From the NCBI RefSeq assembly GCF_003334385.1, contig NZ_QOWN01000033.1: a stretch of DNA of 48,307 nucleotides, one strand, 5' to 3'. Under the pieces are notes generated by a model. It did no database searches. It was not told where the DNA came from and saw only the letters and a list, made by a program, of their open reading frames with translations. The position numbers and the translations under genes were made by a program. This document shows, piece after piece, positions 44,102 to 48,300 of the stretch (position 1 is the first letter of the stretch; each line of letters opens with the position of its first letter). The stretch comes from Escherichia coli. GTDB lineage: Bacteria > Pseudomonadota > Gammaproteobacteria > Enterobacterales > Enterobacteriaceae.

Positions 44102-45202
44102 TTACTTCGCGGTCAGTAATACGCCGCACTCCATATGGTGCGTGTAGGGGAACTGATCAAACAGAGCCAGACGTTCGACCTTGTGCGTCTGGCTTAATGT
44201 TTCCAGATTCTTGCATAACGTTTCCGGGTTACAGGAGATGTACAAAATACGCGGATACGCCTGCACCATTTTCTCGGTTTCACTGTCCAGACCGCTGCGC
44301 GGTGGGTCGACAAAAATGGTTTCGCACTGATAACTCTTTAAGTCGATCCCTTGCAGGCGGTTAAACTCGCGCACACCATTCATCGCCTGAGTAAATTCTT
44401 CTGCCGCCATACGAATAATTTGTACGTTATCAATATGGTTAGCTGCGATGTTGTATTGCGCAGCAGCAACCGACGGCTTAGCGATTTCGGTGGCTAATAC
44501 CCGATCAAAATTACGCGCCAGCGCTAATGAAAAGTTACCGTTGCCGCAGTACAGCTCCAGTAAATCGCCTTTTGAGCCTTTGGTTACGTCCAGCGCCCAT
44601 TCCAGCATCTGAATATTCATCGCCGCGTTCGGCTGGGTAAAGCTGTTTTCTACCTGACGGTAGATCATCTCTTTCCCTGCGACCGGCAGACGTTCATCGA
44701 TGTAATCCTGATCCAGCTCGATTTTGGTTTTCGTTGCCCGACCAATCAGATGCACATTCAGATTCTGCGCGCGCAGTGCATCGCGCAGGGCCTCCGCTTC
44801 CTGACGCCACTCATCATCCAGCTTCTTATGGTATAGCAGGGAAACCACCGCCTGATTACTCAGCGTAGTGAGGTAATCAATCTGGAACAACTTGTGGCGC
44901 AGAACGGGATTATTACGCACACCCGCAATCATCGCCGTCATCAACTGGTTGATAAGTTCACTGGCGGCGGGGAAGCTATCCACGCGGATGCGGCTTTTGG
45001 TTTGTTGATCGAAAATGATGTGATACAGGTCATCGCCATCGTGCCAGATGCGGAACTCCGCGCGCATCCGGTAATGACTGACCGGCGAGCGAAACACTTC
45101 CGGAACCAGGTCAGAAAACGGTGCCATCATACTTTGCAAACGTACCACTTTTTCGGCTAACTGCGCTTCATACTGTTCTGTTGGAAGGTGTTCGGGGGTC
45201 AT
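44102..45202 (-). CDS. trmA: tRNA/tmRNA (uracil-C5)-methyltransferase TrmA (366 aa)
   Basis: Full-length [43 protein letters not shown].... Confidence 0.96.
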
Positions 45203-45330
45203 GATGTATCCTGAAAAATTAAAGTACGCGGCGATTGTAGGGATTGCTCATCAGATGTCCAGATCTTGATGAATTCCTATTTGTGAGCTACGTCTGGACA
45301 GTAACTTGTTACAACCTGTAGCATCCACTT

Positions 45331-45570
45331 GCCGGTCCTGTGAGTTAATAGGGAATCCAGTGCGAATCTGGAGCTGACGCGCAGCGGTAAGGAAAGGTGC
45401 GATGATTGCGTTATGCGGACACTGCCATTCGGTGGGAAGTCATCATCTCTTAGTATCTTAGATACCCCTCCAAGCCCGAAGACCTGCCGGCCAACGTCGC
45501 ATCTGGTTCTCATCATCGCGTAATATTGATGAAACCTGCGGCATCCTTCTTCTATTGTGGATGCTTTACA
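45331..45570 (+). promoter_or_regulatory. btuB leader: adenosylcobalamin (B12) riboswitch
   Basis: Leader GCCGGTCCTGTGAGTTAATAGGGAATCCAGTGCGAATCTGGAGCTGACGCGCAGCGGTAAGGAAAGGTGCGATG... with B12-box-like AAGCCCGAAGACCTGCCGG (about 45473-45490) upstream of the btuB ATG. Confidence 0.85.
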
Positions 45571-47442
45571 ATGATTAAAAAAGCTTCGCTGCTGACGGCG
45601 TGTTCCGTCACGGCATTTTCCGCTTGGGCACAGGATACCAGCCCGGATACTCTCGTCGTTACTGCTAACCGTTTTGAACAGCCGCGCAGCACTGTGCTTG
45701 CACCAACCACCGTTGTGACCCGTCAGGATATCGACCGCTGGCAGTCGACCTCGGTCAATGATGTGCTGCGCCGTCTTCCGGGCGTCGATATCACCCAAAA
45801 CGGCGGTTCAGGTCAGCTCTCATCTATTTTTATTCGCGGTACAAATGCCAGTCATGTGTTGGTGTTAATTGATGGCGTACGCCTGAATCTGGCGGGGGTG
45901 AGTGGTTCTGCCGACCTTAGCCAGTTCCCTATTGCGCTTGTCCAGCGTGTTGAATATATCCGTGGGCCGCGCTCCGCTGTTTATGGTTCCGATGCAATAG
46001 GCGGGGTGGTGAATATCATCACGACGCGCGATGAACCCGGAACGGAAATTTCAGCAGGGTGGGGAAGCAATAGTTATCAGAACTATGATGTCTCTACGCA
46101 GCAACAACTGGGGGATAAGACACGGGTAACGCTGTTGGGCGATTATGCCCATACTCATGGTTATGATGTTGTTGCCTATGGTAATACCGGAACGCAAGCG
46201 CAGACAGATAACGATGGTTTTTTAAGTAAAACGCTTTATGGCGCGCTGGAGCATAACTTTACTGATGCCTGGAGCGGCTTTGTGCGCGGCTATGGCTATG
46301 ATAACCGTACCAATTATGACGCGTATTATTCTCCCGGTTCACCGTTGCTCGATACCCGTAAACTCTATAGCCAAAGTTGGGACGCCGGGCTGCGCTATAA
46401 CGGCGAACTGATTAAATCACAACTCATTACCAGCTATAGCCATAGCAAAGATTACAACTACGATCCCCATTATGGTCGTTATGATTCGTCGGCGACGCTC
46501 GATGAGATGAAGCAATACACCGTCCAGTGGGCAAACAATGTCATCGTTGGTCACGGTAGTATTGGTGCGGGTGTCGACTGGCAGAAACAGACTACGACGC
46601 CGGGTACAGGTTATGTTGAGGATGGATATGATCAACGTAATACCGGCATCTATCTGACCGGGCTGCAACAAGTCGGCGATTTTACCTTTGAAGGCGCAGC
46701 ACGCAGTGACGATAACTCACAGTTTGGTCGTCATGGAACCTGGCAAACCAGCGCCGGTTGGGAATTCATCGAAGGTTATCGCTTCATTGCTTCCTACGGG
46801 ACATCTTATAAGGCACCAAATCTGGGGCAACTGTATGGCTTCTACGGAAATCCGAATCTGGACCCGGAGAAAAGCAAACAGTGGGAAGGCGCGTTTGAAG
46901 GCTTAACCGCTGGGGTGAACTGGCGTATTTCCGGATATCGTAACGATGTCAGTGACTTGATCGATTATGATGATCACACCCTGAAATATTACAACGAAGG
47001 GAAAGCGCGGATTAAGGGCGTCGAGGCGACCGCCAATTTTGATACCGGACCACTGACGCATACTGTGAGTTATGATTATGTCGATGCGCGCAATGCGATT
47101 ACCGACACGCCGTTGTTACGCCGTGCTAAACAGCAGGTGAAATACCAGCTCGACTGGCAGTTGTATGACTTCGACTGGGGTATTACTTATCAGTATTTAG
47201 GCACTCGCTATGATAAGGATTACTCATCTTATCCTTATCAAACCGTTAAAATGGGCGGTGTGAGCTTGTGGGATCTTGCGGTTGCGTATCCGGTCACCTC
47301 TCACCTGACAGTTCGTGGTAAAATAGCCAACCTGTTCGACAAAGATTATGAGACAGTCTATGGCTACCAAACTGCAGGACGGGAATACACCTTGTCTGGC
47401 AGCTACACCTTCAGAACCACGTCCCACCGTGCTGGTGTTTGA
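45571..47442 (+). CDS. btuB: TonB-dependent vitamin B12 / colicin / phage BF23 outer-membrane receptor BtuB, here 623 codons: canonical 614 plus a 9-residue C-terminal extension (RTTSHRAGV) from a stop-loss
   Basis: ORF contains [35 protein letters not shown] (signal peptide and TonB box) through ...TLSGSYTF; the codon after the terminal Phe (47413-47415) is AGA, not a stop, and the next in-frame stop is TGA at 47440-47442. Confidence 0.9.
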
Positions 47443-48217
47443 CTCCGGCGTCGGTGGGTTGTCGGTCTATGACGAGATCCGGCATCTCTTACCGGATCTC
47501 CATTACATTTATGCTTTCGATAACGTCGCTTTCCCGTATGGCGAAAAAAGCGAAGCGTTTATTGTTGAGCGAGTGGTGGCAATTGTCACCGCGGTGCAAG
47601 AACGTTATCCCCTTGCGCTGGCTGTGGTCGCTTGCAACACTGCCAGTACCGTTTCACTTCCTGCATTACGCGAAAAGTTCGACTTCCCGGTTGTTGGTGT
47701 CGTGCCGGCGATTAAACCTGCTGCACGTCTGACGGCAAATGGCATTGTCGGATTACTGGCAACCCGCGGAACAGTTAAACGTTCTTATACTCATGAGCTG
47801 ATCGCGCGTTTCGCTAATGAATGCCAGATAGAAATGCTGGGCTCGGCAGAGATGGTTGAGTTGGCTGAAGCGAAGCTACATGGCGAAGATGTTTCTCTGG
47901 ATGCACTAAAACGTATCCTACGCCCGTGGTTAAGAATGAAAGAGCCGCCAGATACCGTTGTATTGGGTTGCACCCATTTCCCTCTACTACAAGAAGAACT
48001 GTTACAAGTGCTGCCAGAGGGAACCCGGCTGGTGGATTCTGGCGCAGCGATTGCTCGCCGAACGGCCTGGTTGTTAGAACATGAAGCCCCGGATGCAAAA
48101 TCTGCCGATGCGAATATTGCCTTTTGTATGGCAATGACGCCAGGAGCTGAACAATTATTGCCCGTTTTACAGCGTTACGGCTTCGAAACGCTCGAAAAAC
48201 TGGCAGTTTTAGGCTGA
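47360..48217 (+). CDS. murI: Glutamate racemase MurI (285 aa)
   Basis: ORF contains [40 protein letters not shown]...; start lies inside the btuB 3' end in a different frame. Confidence 0.94.
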
Positions 48218-48237
48218 TTTGGTTGAATGTTGCGCGG

Positions 48238-48300
48238 TCAGAAAATTATTTTAAATTTCCTCTTGTCAGGCCGGAATAACTCCCTATAATGCGCCACCAC
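48238..48300 (+). promoter_or_regulatory. rrnB P1 ribosomal RNA promoter (UP element, -35 TTGTCA at 48263-48268, -10 TATAAT at 48285-48290); the rRNA operon itself lies beyond the window
   Basis: TCAGAAAATTATTTTAAATTTCCTCTTGTCAGGCCGGAATAACTCCCTATAATGCGCCACCACTGACACG, which I recognise as the rrnB P1 core with its A/T-rich UP element. Confidence 0.85.

Follow-up and report, generated by a model that had tools for sequence, protein, structure and literature searches.

The question raised by this locus is how far coding, overlapping-frame and regulatory constraints are layered where btuB, murI and the rrnB P1 promoter meet, and whether they dictated the btuB stop-loss found here. The stacking of these elements, including Fis sites in the end of murI, is textbook E. 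coli. An earlier note on the window (the whole stretch of E. coli DNA that was analysed, 48,307 nucleotides) held that such constraints are layered over about 1 kb and that the btuB stop-loss therefore "has to be" one specific T-to-A change. Comparative analysis demonstrated that the stacking is real, family-wide and measurable, but not that it spans about 1 kb, as synonymous variation across the middle ~200 codons of murI is that of ordinary coding sequence. Synonymous variation collapses at three places, namely the dual-coding 56 nt, the sequence just 5' of the embedded murI start and one coding-embedded Fis site.

Organization of the btuB-murI-rrnB junction

Between positions 45200 and 48307 the window carries a single mismatch to MG1655, at 47413 (A here, T there). 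The identical btuB allele is annotated by PGAP in SCU-104 (WP_016232390.1), and the window is a carrier distinct from that strain, with 8 mismatches and without the IS insertion of SCU-104. PGAP features in the matching MG1655 and SCU-104 sequence are btuB, murI, a riboswitch and the 16S rRNA. A search of 45200-48307 against Rfam 15 (E <= 1) returned only Cobalamin (45316-45505) and a partial Ysr197 match (48216-48307), and a scan of 47000-48307 detected no terminator-like sites. The genes, their overlap, the variant, the promoter elements, the Fis sites and the RNA features described below all lie on the plus strand.

By the open reading frame list and PGAP, the btuB stop-loss allele runs from the ATG at 45571 to 47442 and encodes 623 aa, whereas the wild type ends at 47415 and encodes 614 aa. 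The product, the TonB-dependent vitamin B12 receptor BtuB, scores 1112.2 bits against NCBIfam NF007926 (cut-off 836), with the match stopping at residue 614, and 903.1 bits against TIGR01779 (cut-off 599.7). The glutamate racemase gene murI extends from 47360 to 48217 (ATG 47360, TGA 48215-48217; 285 aa; PGAP WP_000201820.1), and its product scores 512.7 bits against NCBIfam NF002034 (cut-off 408; residues 24-283 matched) and 323.9 bits against TIGR00067 (cut-off 146.65). The two genes overlap out of frame at 47360-47442, with murI in the +1 frame of btuB. The earlier note had this overlap as normally 56 bp and as 83 bp here owing to the BtuB extension; the coordinates (47360-47415 in the wild type) agree, as does an overlap of exactly 56 nt in 79 of the 80 Enterobacteriaceae species compared. 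Start and stop positions and the frame relation match those of E. coli K-12 btuB-murI, one base apart; the two differ in overlap (83 versus 56 nt) and in BtuB length (623 versus 614 aa) through the TGA>AGA change at 47413.

We conclude that the region is almost certainly the canonical enterobacterial btuB-murI-rrnB junction of an E. coli resembling K-12, with a natural but rare stop-loss allele of btuB. The organization itself is already known for E. coli. The btuB-murI overlap has been described in the literature and accounts for the lack of a btuB knockout in the Keio collection, and the two genes have been treated as one operon. As such, the junction restates known genome organization and matters little; its value is that of a clean worked example of overlapping constraints visible in comparative data.

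The rrnB P1 promoter and its Fis sites

The rrnB P1 core occupies 48263-48299 and consists of a -35 hexamer TTGTCA (48263-48268), a 16-nt spacer, a -10 hexamer TATAAT (48285-48290) and the GC-rich discriminator GCGCCACC. The transcription start, which we take to be the A at 48299, 9 nt past the -10 hexamer, was cross-checked by the Fis register, which supports it indirectly. The hexamers, with 11 of 12 consensus positions, form the best site of the promoter scan, and the -35, spacer, -10, discriminator and UP sequence are all identical to those of E. coli rrnB P1. The window stops at +9 of P1, with P2 and the rRNA genes outside it; in SCU-104 and MG1655, the identical sequence is followed by annotated 16S rRNA, tRNA-Glu and 23S genes. 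A UP element (AGAAAATTATTTTAAATTTC) can be read from the sequence at 48239-48259, about -60 to -40, in a region that is AT-rich and conserved in 72 sequences; its published placement is -65 to -41 (bioRxiv 10.1101/2020.02.17.953182). Measured from the murI stop, the UP element starts after 17-22 nt and the -35 hexamer after 46 nt, consistent with the prior estimate that P1 begins about 20 bp past murI. The same P1 hexamers were found 21-51 nt past murI in all 70 loci with sufficient downstream sequence, which, together with the hexamer match, upholds this position of rrnB P1 against a placement elsewhere.

Fis sites of rrnB P1 have been published as centred at -71, -102 and -143 (PMC2885671). 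When the interval from -170 to -60 was scanned for GnnnRnnWnnYnnnC, only three matches were obtained, and they fall exactly at the published centres when 48299 is taken as the start; the density of this consensus in the window is 0.009 per position. The predicted core of site I (GGTTGAATGTTGCGC, 48221-48235, centre -71) is intergenic, 4-18 nt past the murI stop, while the predicted cores of site II (GCTCGAAAAACTGGC, 48190-48204, centre -102) and site III (GAACAATTATTGCCC, 48149-48163, centre -143) lie within murI codons 277-282 and 264-268, respectively. The expectation that the Fis-binding region falls inside the 3' end of murI thus holds for sites II and III and fails for site I. With no terminator behind murI, the last ~70 nt of the gene would carry sites II and III of the P1 upstream activating region, and site I and the UP element would occupy the 45-nt gap up to the -35 hexamer.

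Conservation differs among the three sites. In site I, 71 of 72 sequences have the G at -78, the same number have the C at -64, and the centre is A-rich. Site II retains its motif, at -102 or -101, in 68 of 72 sequences, and its codons are frozen (ACG 59/59, GAA 81/81, AAA 73/79). Site III does so, at -144 to -142, in 59 of 72. Conservation of motifs II and III could be a mere by-product of MurI protein conservation, without selection for Fis binding. Most of the critical motif positions coincide with the first or second base of a codon for a conserved residue, and since the conserved MurI residues E279, K280, L281 and A282 determine four of the five critical positions in site II, part of the motif retention at this site is indeed a protein by-product. 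Site III likewise shows synonymous variation near background, with only weak constraint (rank 32 of 254). The synonymous positions of site II, however, are frozen in a manner that preserves the -7 G and the A-tract, and its window ranks 8 of 254 in synonymous constraint, the most constrained in murI outside codons 1-47. We consider it rather unlikely that protein conservation is the whole explanation. The comparison of murI 3' codons with Fis site positions, which the earlier note suggested as a check, shows extra constraint at site II and little at site III.

The stop-loss allele at position 47413

At 47413, the T>A variant turns the btuB stop from TGA into an Arg codon, AGA, so that the normal stop position, 47413-47415, is read through to the next in-frame stop, TGA at 47440-47442; the 83-nt overlap results from this change. 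In murI the same substitution converts codon 18 from TCT to TCA, both Ser, and is silent, as had been claimed. An exact 61-mer carrying the variant is present in one of 5,426 complete E. coli genomes. Such rarity in complete genomes might be taken for a sequencing or assembly error, but this is extremely improbable, as records of the exact 623-aa protein cover 60 contigs and, among the matches listed, at least four distinct, independent assemblies from different projects (168 index blocks list the protein). Its RefSeq accession, WP_016232390.1, dates from the 2013 era, and the window is a further carrier besides SCU-104. The allele is rare but real. Flanks of the carrier assemblies among the matches listed are identical or nearly so, and the allele probably survives as a polymorphism private to a single lineage.

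The further claim, that coding constraint from murI forces the stop-loss to be exactly T-to-A, did not survive enumeration of the codon effects in both genes for all single-base changes of the btuB stop. The observed change is silent in murI, and none of the 80 other species departs from T at 47413, as such a constraint might lead one to expect. Position 47413, however, is the third base of the four-fold degenerate murI codon Ser18 (TCN), and T>A, T>C (CGA) and T>G (GGA) each abolish the btuB stop and leave the MurI sequence unchanged. The stop can also be lost through G>C, A>C, A>G or A>T, which produce MurI E19Q, E19A, E19G and E19V, respectively; these four changes alter only a residue that varies among species (D, E, K and others; entropy 1.36 bits). 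G>T is the sole single-base btuB stop-loss that gives a nonsense codon in murI. The codon table thus already refutes a forced T-to-A change, which we regard as highly improbable, and the invariance reflects the need for a btuB stop. Since the position is four-fold degenerate in murI, its T is, as judged from the two reading frames, held by BtuB termination alone and not by murI.

Consequences for the BtuB C-terminus

The stop-loss adds nine residues, RTTSHRAGV, after F614. Wild-type BtuB ends in ...SGSYTF in the species with a 56-nt overlap (79 of 80), and all TonB-receptor profiles and all PDB BtuB chains stop at residue 614. A BtuB is otherwise expected to finish on the aromatic residue that closes its last beta-strand (...YTF), but here F614 is internal. 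By its sequence the 623-aa protein is still BtuB, with an atypical C-terminus. A Phe or Tyr at the C-terminus serves as a recognition feature for the Bam machinery (PMC3706956), and the wild-type ...YTF end in 79 of 80 species resembles the C-terminal beta-signal of outer-membrane barrels; unlike the usual signal, the Phe in the window is internal and followed by RTTSHRAGV. The tail would therefore bury the Phe that is recognised by the Bam machinery, and we infer that the effect of the allele on BtuB assembly most likely ranges from none to mild impairment.

A stronger interpretation is that the stop-loss is adaptive, in that it would disable the C-terminal assembly signal, impair BtuB and permit escape from BtuB-dependent phages and E colicins while the essential overlapping murI remains untouched. 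As a receptor for phages and colicins, BtuB experiences strong selection; its terminal Phe is both the family-wide protein end and part of the Bam signal, and murI hampers outright btuB deletion according to the literature. Insertions in the 3' end of btuB have been reported to confer phage resistance, and natural btuB disruptions are known, such as the IS2 in strain RM10410. However, the nearly identical flanks give the appearance of a single lineage rather than of recurrent events, a frameshift or IS anywhere upstream of the overlap would be a simpler route to BtuB inactivation, and short C-terminal tails are perhaps tolerated by some barrel proteins. Judged from sequence comparison, an adaptive origin appears unlikely, and a neutral to mildly impairing allele is the reading that we prefer. 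A clean btuB deletion is precluded by murI, which leaves C-terminal changes such as this one as one of the few options for modifying the BtuB end with MurI untouched.

Constraint around the murI start

The ATG at 47360 is invariant (81 of 81 sequences), so the claim that murI starts within btuB stands, and a different start, named beforehand as a possible refutation, was not found. The upstream in-frame ATG at 47348 was ruled out as a start, being present in 2 of 80 species, as was the GTG at murI codon 24, which is not conserved (60 of 81). As a separate observation, some gene callers shorten murI to 262 aa on the stop-loss allele, an artefact of annotation.

In its +1 frame, the final 56 nt of wild-type btuB also encode murI codons 1-19. 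Synonymous entropy in the overlap is near zero in both reading frames; murI codons 1-19 average about 0.15 bits, compared to a gene mean of 1.16. Because the family models begin at residue 24, the first MurI residues form an N-terminal tail outside the racemase fold. With the tail outside the fold, the last beta-strand of BtuB dictates the sequence of the overlap and the MurI tail takes up the changes. The btuB/murI overlap also tolerates transposon insertions (bioRxiv 10.1101/2025.12.01.691526), and the combination of tolerated insertions with family models starting at residue 24 indicates that the MurI N-terminus is dispensable. From the distribution of synonymous variation, extra constraint appears confined to the two ends of murI.

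Two layers at this end were absent from the earlier note, namely a pair of hairpins within murI codons 22-47 and, immediately 5' of the ATG, a frozen block. This block, defined by synonymous-site conservation, comprises btuB codons 581-596 (47311-47359). Its synonymous deficit of -0.90 bits lies below that of all 499 equal-size windows across btuB codons 25-570, the minimum of which is -0.27. Within it, TGNTAAAAT is kept in 80 of 81 sequences, TGgTAAAAT (47316-47324) resembles an extended -10 element and GAG (47350-47352) resembles a Shine-Dalgarno sequence. These candidate signals suggest that the block may hold a murI promoter and ribosome-binding site. The promoter scan also gave a consensus-like site at 47187-47214, which we discount as a murI promoter because its synonymous sites vary freely (+0.14). 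A literature search for a published murI promoter returned nothing relevant.

Conserved RNA hairpins in the 5' coding region of murI

RNAalifold predicted two hairpins, H1 with 13 pairs in murI codons 22-33 (47424-47457) and H2 (GAGAUCC...GGAUCUC) with 7 pairs in codons 39-47 (47475-47499). The fold of 47405-47500 has an energy of -45.4 kcal/mol (z = -4.77). H1 begins 8 nt past the wild-type btuB stop, and the new stop at 47440-47442 falls in its apical part; by the sequence, ribosomes in the btuB frame on the stop-loss allele would travel 27 nt further, into H1. Across Enterobacteriaceae, covariation was observed in H1 at alignment columns 32-50 (GC 56, CG 9, AU 7) and in H2 at columns 78-98 (AU 71, GC 6) and 80-96 (CG 46, UG 25, UA 10), where the changes include amino-acid changes and the pair is kept. 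A homologous-protein search aimed at more distant Enterobacterales returned only relatives with >= 85% identity. H1 is specific to the plus strand and has two invariant U-G pairs, and the rare codons GGG and CGG are conserved at it.

Several known classes of element were compared with these structures. Neither hairpin has the GC-rich stem followed by a U-tract of an intrinsic terminator, CAUUACAUUUAUGC being the sequence that follows H2. The Term-seq supplement lists, in its text, no murI 3' end and, in the passage covered, none between the btuB start and rrsB, and a literature search for a hairpin or terminator after btuB returned nothing relevant. No Rfam 15 covariance model matched H1 or H2 (E <= 1). 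A SECIS or other recoding function of H1 was rejected. Selenocysteine insertion is excluded because 11 species have a TAA stop and not TGA; in addition, there is no slippery site and BtuB is exported. H2 was likewise rejected as a DNA-level palindrome or Dam/SeqA site, since about 35 of 81 sequences have lost GATC and the U-G wobbles needed for pairing are A-C mismatches on the opposite strand. H1 is similar to the stem-loops found just 3' of stop codons, which serve as intercistronic mRNA stabilisers or as SECIS or read-through stimulators, in that it is stable, conserved and 8 nt downstream of a stop. Unlike them, it sits within the coding sequence of another gene and has no U-tract, slippery sequence or Rfam match.

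As a tentative possibility, which we consider doubtful at present, H1 and H2, together with the structured and frozen sequence at 47311-47402, may form an undescribed cis-acting mRNA element that acts in murI expression or at the 3' boundary of btuB. Such an element could block exonucleases, reduce read-through towards rrnB P1 or favour the return of ribosomes to the murI AUG after they complete btuB. This conserved RNA structure in the murI 5' coding region is the only item at the locus that could lead to new biology. If the element exists, the stop-loss allele would be a natural perturbation of it, with termination in the btuB frame taking place inside H1 and not 8 nt before it.

Organization of the btuB-murI-rrnB P1 junction

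Features in the final 3 kb of the window are minus-strand trmA, a cobalamin riboswitch (45316-45505; Rfam RF00174, 87 bits), btuB (ATG at 45571, stop here TGA 47440-47442), murI (ATG 47360 to TGA 48215-48217) and, 3' of murI, the rrnB P1 promoter, which extends to the window end. A megablast search matched this 3.1-kb stretch in all 5,426 complete E. coli genomes, and in the matching genomes PGAP calls btuB, murI and the riboswitch, with 16S rRNA, tRNA-Glu and 23S rRNA further downstream. Across 45200-48307 a single base (47413, A versus T) separates the window from the K-12 reference MG1655, and the entire 48 kb is K-12-like, with 16 mismatches and one intergenic indel. The closest relative is SCU-104 (8 mismatches), whose hslU carries the IS4-family element ISVsa5 (44470-45678, corresponding to window position ~3850). 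The window does not have that insertion and therefore derives from a separate, though related, carrier of the btuB stop-loss allele. Relative to MG1655, the argE-ppc intergenic region (window ~35380-35630) is missing ~246 nt adjoining a ~100-nt repeated stretch; this short form is common to the window and SCU-104, and a repeat element that varies in copy number probably accounts for the length difference. As written, everything that the earlier note describes at the junction is already known, either as E. coli biology or as an allele on record.

The wild-type btuB/murI overlap is conserved in length across the family

The wild-type btuB stop (TGA, 47413-47415) reads AGA in the window, and translation continues to the next in-frame stop at 47440-47442, adding the tail RTTSHRAGV for a BtuB of 623 residues. 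The coordinates bear out the overlaps previously given: 56 nt for the wild-type gene and 83 nt for the allele in the window. In a comparative set of 80 Enterobacteriaceae loci, with one genome scanned per species, the overlap was exactly 56 nt and BtuB ended in SGSYTF in 79, the exception being a frameshifted assembly. Within the overlap, third codon positions of btuB are second positions of murI, while third positions of murI are first positions of btuB. BtuB residues 597-614 are nearly invariant in the 81 sequences (80 loci plus the window), and MurI residues 4, 8, 11, 19 and 20 are variable. Racemase family models begin at MurI residue 24, and TraDIS data indicate that transposon insertions are tolerated in the overlap (bioRxiv 10.1101/2025.12.01.691526); together these results argue that a dispensable MurI N-terminal tail lies over the last beta-strand of BtuB.

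A different validated murI start had been named as a finding that would overturn this arrangement, and the start at 47360 withstood the comparison, with ATG kept in 81 of 81 sequences. The upstream in-frame ATG at 47348 was rejected because it requires a TAT codon for BtuB Tyr593, which just 2 of the 80 species have; the others use TAC. The btuB of Intestinirhabdus alba looks disrupted upstream (only 666 nt open before a stop) and that of Citrobacter amalonaticus is frameshifted upstream; in both, the 3' part overlapping murI is intact. The 90%-identity protein cluster of BtuB includes glutamate racemases of 283-285 residues as members, which looks like a clustering artefact, perhaps from fused or overlapping gene calls.

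The stop-loss is not confined to T-to-A

Position 47413 is the third, four-fold degenerate base of murI codon 18 (TCT, Ser). All nine single-base changes of the btuB stop codon were enumerated for their effect in both frames. Any substitution of the T (to A, C or G) removes the btuB stop and is silent in murI; the stop is also lost by G>C, A>C, A>G and A>T, which give MurI E19Q, E19A, E19G and E19V, respectively. G>T creates a nonsense codon in murI, and G>A yields TAA, a retained stop used by eleven species with Lys at MurI residue 19. That residue is among the most variable in the protein (1.36 bits). The proposal that the stop-loss has to be the T-to-A change is thus unsupported, as the three T substitutions are equally silent and residue 19 is so variable. 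The T at 47413 is kept only by the need of btuB for a stop, and any substitution there is invisible to MurI.

The exact 61-mer around 47413 occurred in one of the 5,426 complete genomes, SCU-104, where btuB is annotated as 623 residues (WP_016232390.1). The exact 623-residue protein is recorded on 60 contigs, and at least four distinct assemblies carrying it are among the matches listed (168 index blocks list the protein); in the assemblies listed, the flanking sequence matches the window exactly or almost exactly. These occurrences mark the allele as a genuine polymorphism, probably of single origin. In some stop-loss assemblies (two loci, murI called at 3359-4147) murI is shortened to 262 residues, starting at window position 47429, likely because the 83-nt overlap exceeds that permitted by the gene caller; the short call is an annotation artefact produced by the allele.

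Residue 614 is the end of all TonB-receptor profiles and of all solved BtuB chains, and a C-terminal Phe or Tyr is recognised by the Bam machinery (PMC3706956). The nine-residue tail would most likely be neutral to mildly harmful for BtuB assembly; adaptive escape from phage or colicin through the allele is possible.

rrnB P1 and its Fis sites

The best promoter-like site of our scan (11 of 12 hexamer positions) was rrnB P1, with a -35 hexamer TTGTCA (48263-48268) beginning 46 nt past the murI stop, a 16-nt spacer and a -10 hexamer TATAAT (48285-48290). The -10 is followed by the discriminator GCGCCACC and an A at 48299, which we take to be the transcription start and relative to which the murI stop ends at -82. 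The UP element has been placed at -65 to -41 (bioRxiv 10.1101/2020.02.17.953182). Since this element (~-60 to -40) begins 17-22 nt past the stop, the earlier placement of P1 about 20 bp after murI is sound. The window scan found no terminator-like site between murI and P1.

Published work places the centres of the three rrnB P1 Fis sites at -71, -102 and -143 and gives the Fis consensus as GnnnRnnWnnYnnnC (PMC2885671). A consensus scan of -170 to -60 returned exactly three matches, at those three centres, against a background density of 0.009 per position in the window, and this agreement supports the start at 48299 independently, though indirectly. The predicted core of site III (48149-48163) covers murI codons 264-268 and that of site II (48190-48204) codons 277-282, while the predicted core of site I (48221-48235) falls in the gap after the murI stop. 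The Fis region had been expected inside the 3' end of murI, which holds for sites II and III, whereas site I is intergenic.

Every one of the 70 loci that extend 85 nt or more downstream has TTGTCA-16-TATAAT 21-51 nt past the murI stop. The DNA spacing between murI and P1 is constant in most species, and only the stop codon shifts, with its last base at -88 (43 species), -82 (12) and -58 (4). In genera with a 293-residue MurI (Silvania, Entomohabitans, Leclercia, Cedecea and others) the frame continues through Fis site I and enters the UP element, ending just 21-22 nt short of the -35 hexamer. Several more 293-residue glutamate racemases were among the protein search matches. A partial match to Rfam RF02849 (Ysr197, a Yersinia sRNA; model positions 1-92 of 254) at 48216-48307 on the plus strand scored 39 bits, below the gathering score; it begins right after the murI stop and covers P1 along with the beginning of the rrn leader.

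Synonymous constraint over the junction

Synonymous constraint was evaluated in codon alignments of the 81 sequences as the per-codon entropy among sequences sharing the majority amino acid, compared with the mid-gene mean of the same amino acid. Mean codon entropy in murI was 1.16 bits, against ~0.15 bits in overlap codons 1-19. The conservation analysis of murI 3' codons that had been proposed revealed extra constraint at Fis site II, whose window is eighth of 254 and has the lowest value outside murI codons 1-47. Its frozen codon choices (ACG 59/59, GAA 81/81, AAA 73/79) preserve the -7 G and the A-tract of the site. Conserved MurI residues explain part of this retention, since they fix four of the five critical positions through first or second codon bases. 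Site III, at rank 32 of 254, hardly stands out from background. Of 72 sequences, 68 keep the Fis consensus at -102 or -101 and 59 keep it at -144 to -142; at site I, the G (-78) and the C (-64) are each present in 71. The stacking is thus real and conserved, but its extent of about 1 kb was overstated.

Two layers absent from the earlier note are a frozen block ahead of murI and a pair of hairpins within it. The block comprises btuB codons 581-596 (47311-47358), a 48-nt stretch ahead of the murI ATG that lies outside the overlap, where the synonymous deficit of -0.90 bits is below all 499 equal-size windows in btuB codons 25-570 (minimum -0.27). It includes TGgTAAAAT (47316-47324), shared by 80 of 81 sequences, and, 8 nt ahead of the ATG, an invariant GAG; the simplest reading would be that btuB harbours a promoter and ribosome-binding site for murI. 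Synonymous variation is also strongly lowered in btuB codons 1-20 (45571-45630; -1.12 and -0.73 bits), which would fit a riboswitch expression platform extending into the coding sequence.

Predicted RNA hairpins in the murI 5' coding region

Codons 20-47 of murI are also depleted of synonymous change, with the rare codons GGG and CGG conserved. The fold of 47405-47500 has an energy of -45.4 kcal/mol (z = -4.77 versus shuffles), and RNAalifold on the 81 sequences predicts two plus-strand hairpins, H1 (47424-47457) and H2 (47475-47499), which span murI codons 22-47. Sliding RNAalifold gave -16 to -28 kcal/mol over 47300-47520 versus -1 to -3.5 in the remainder of murI. Four pairs display compensatory changes (GC 56/CG 9/AU 7; GC 34/GU 26/AU 10; AU 71/GC 6; CG 46/UG 25/UA 10), some of which entail amino-acid changes. 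Paired cells amounted to 98.4% versus 96.0% in shuffles, and cells changed on both sides numbered 41 versus 9.7 +/- 4.0, neither value being reached by any of 500 shuffles; slid controls were 31-57% paired. Two phylogeny-robust covariation measures were not significant, with 111 and 23 of 500 shuffles reaching the observed values. Two invariant U-G pairs indicate that the structure is specific to the plus-strand RNA.

An Rfam search matched no family to H1 or H2, a scan at the hairpins found no U-tract, and the text of a Term-seq supplement (PMC7815308) lists no murI 3' end and, in the part covered, none from the btuB start to rrsB. The hairpins are a modest lead, separable from the junction itself. 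A further plus-strand stem-loop is predicted at 47372-47402 (CUGCAGGACGGG...CCUUGUCUGGCAG), 12 nt past the murI AUG in the dual-coding overlap, in sequence too conserved to show covariation. The stop-loss shifts btuB termination from 8 nt before H1 to the apical part of H1.
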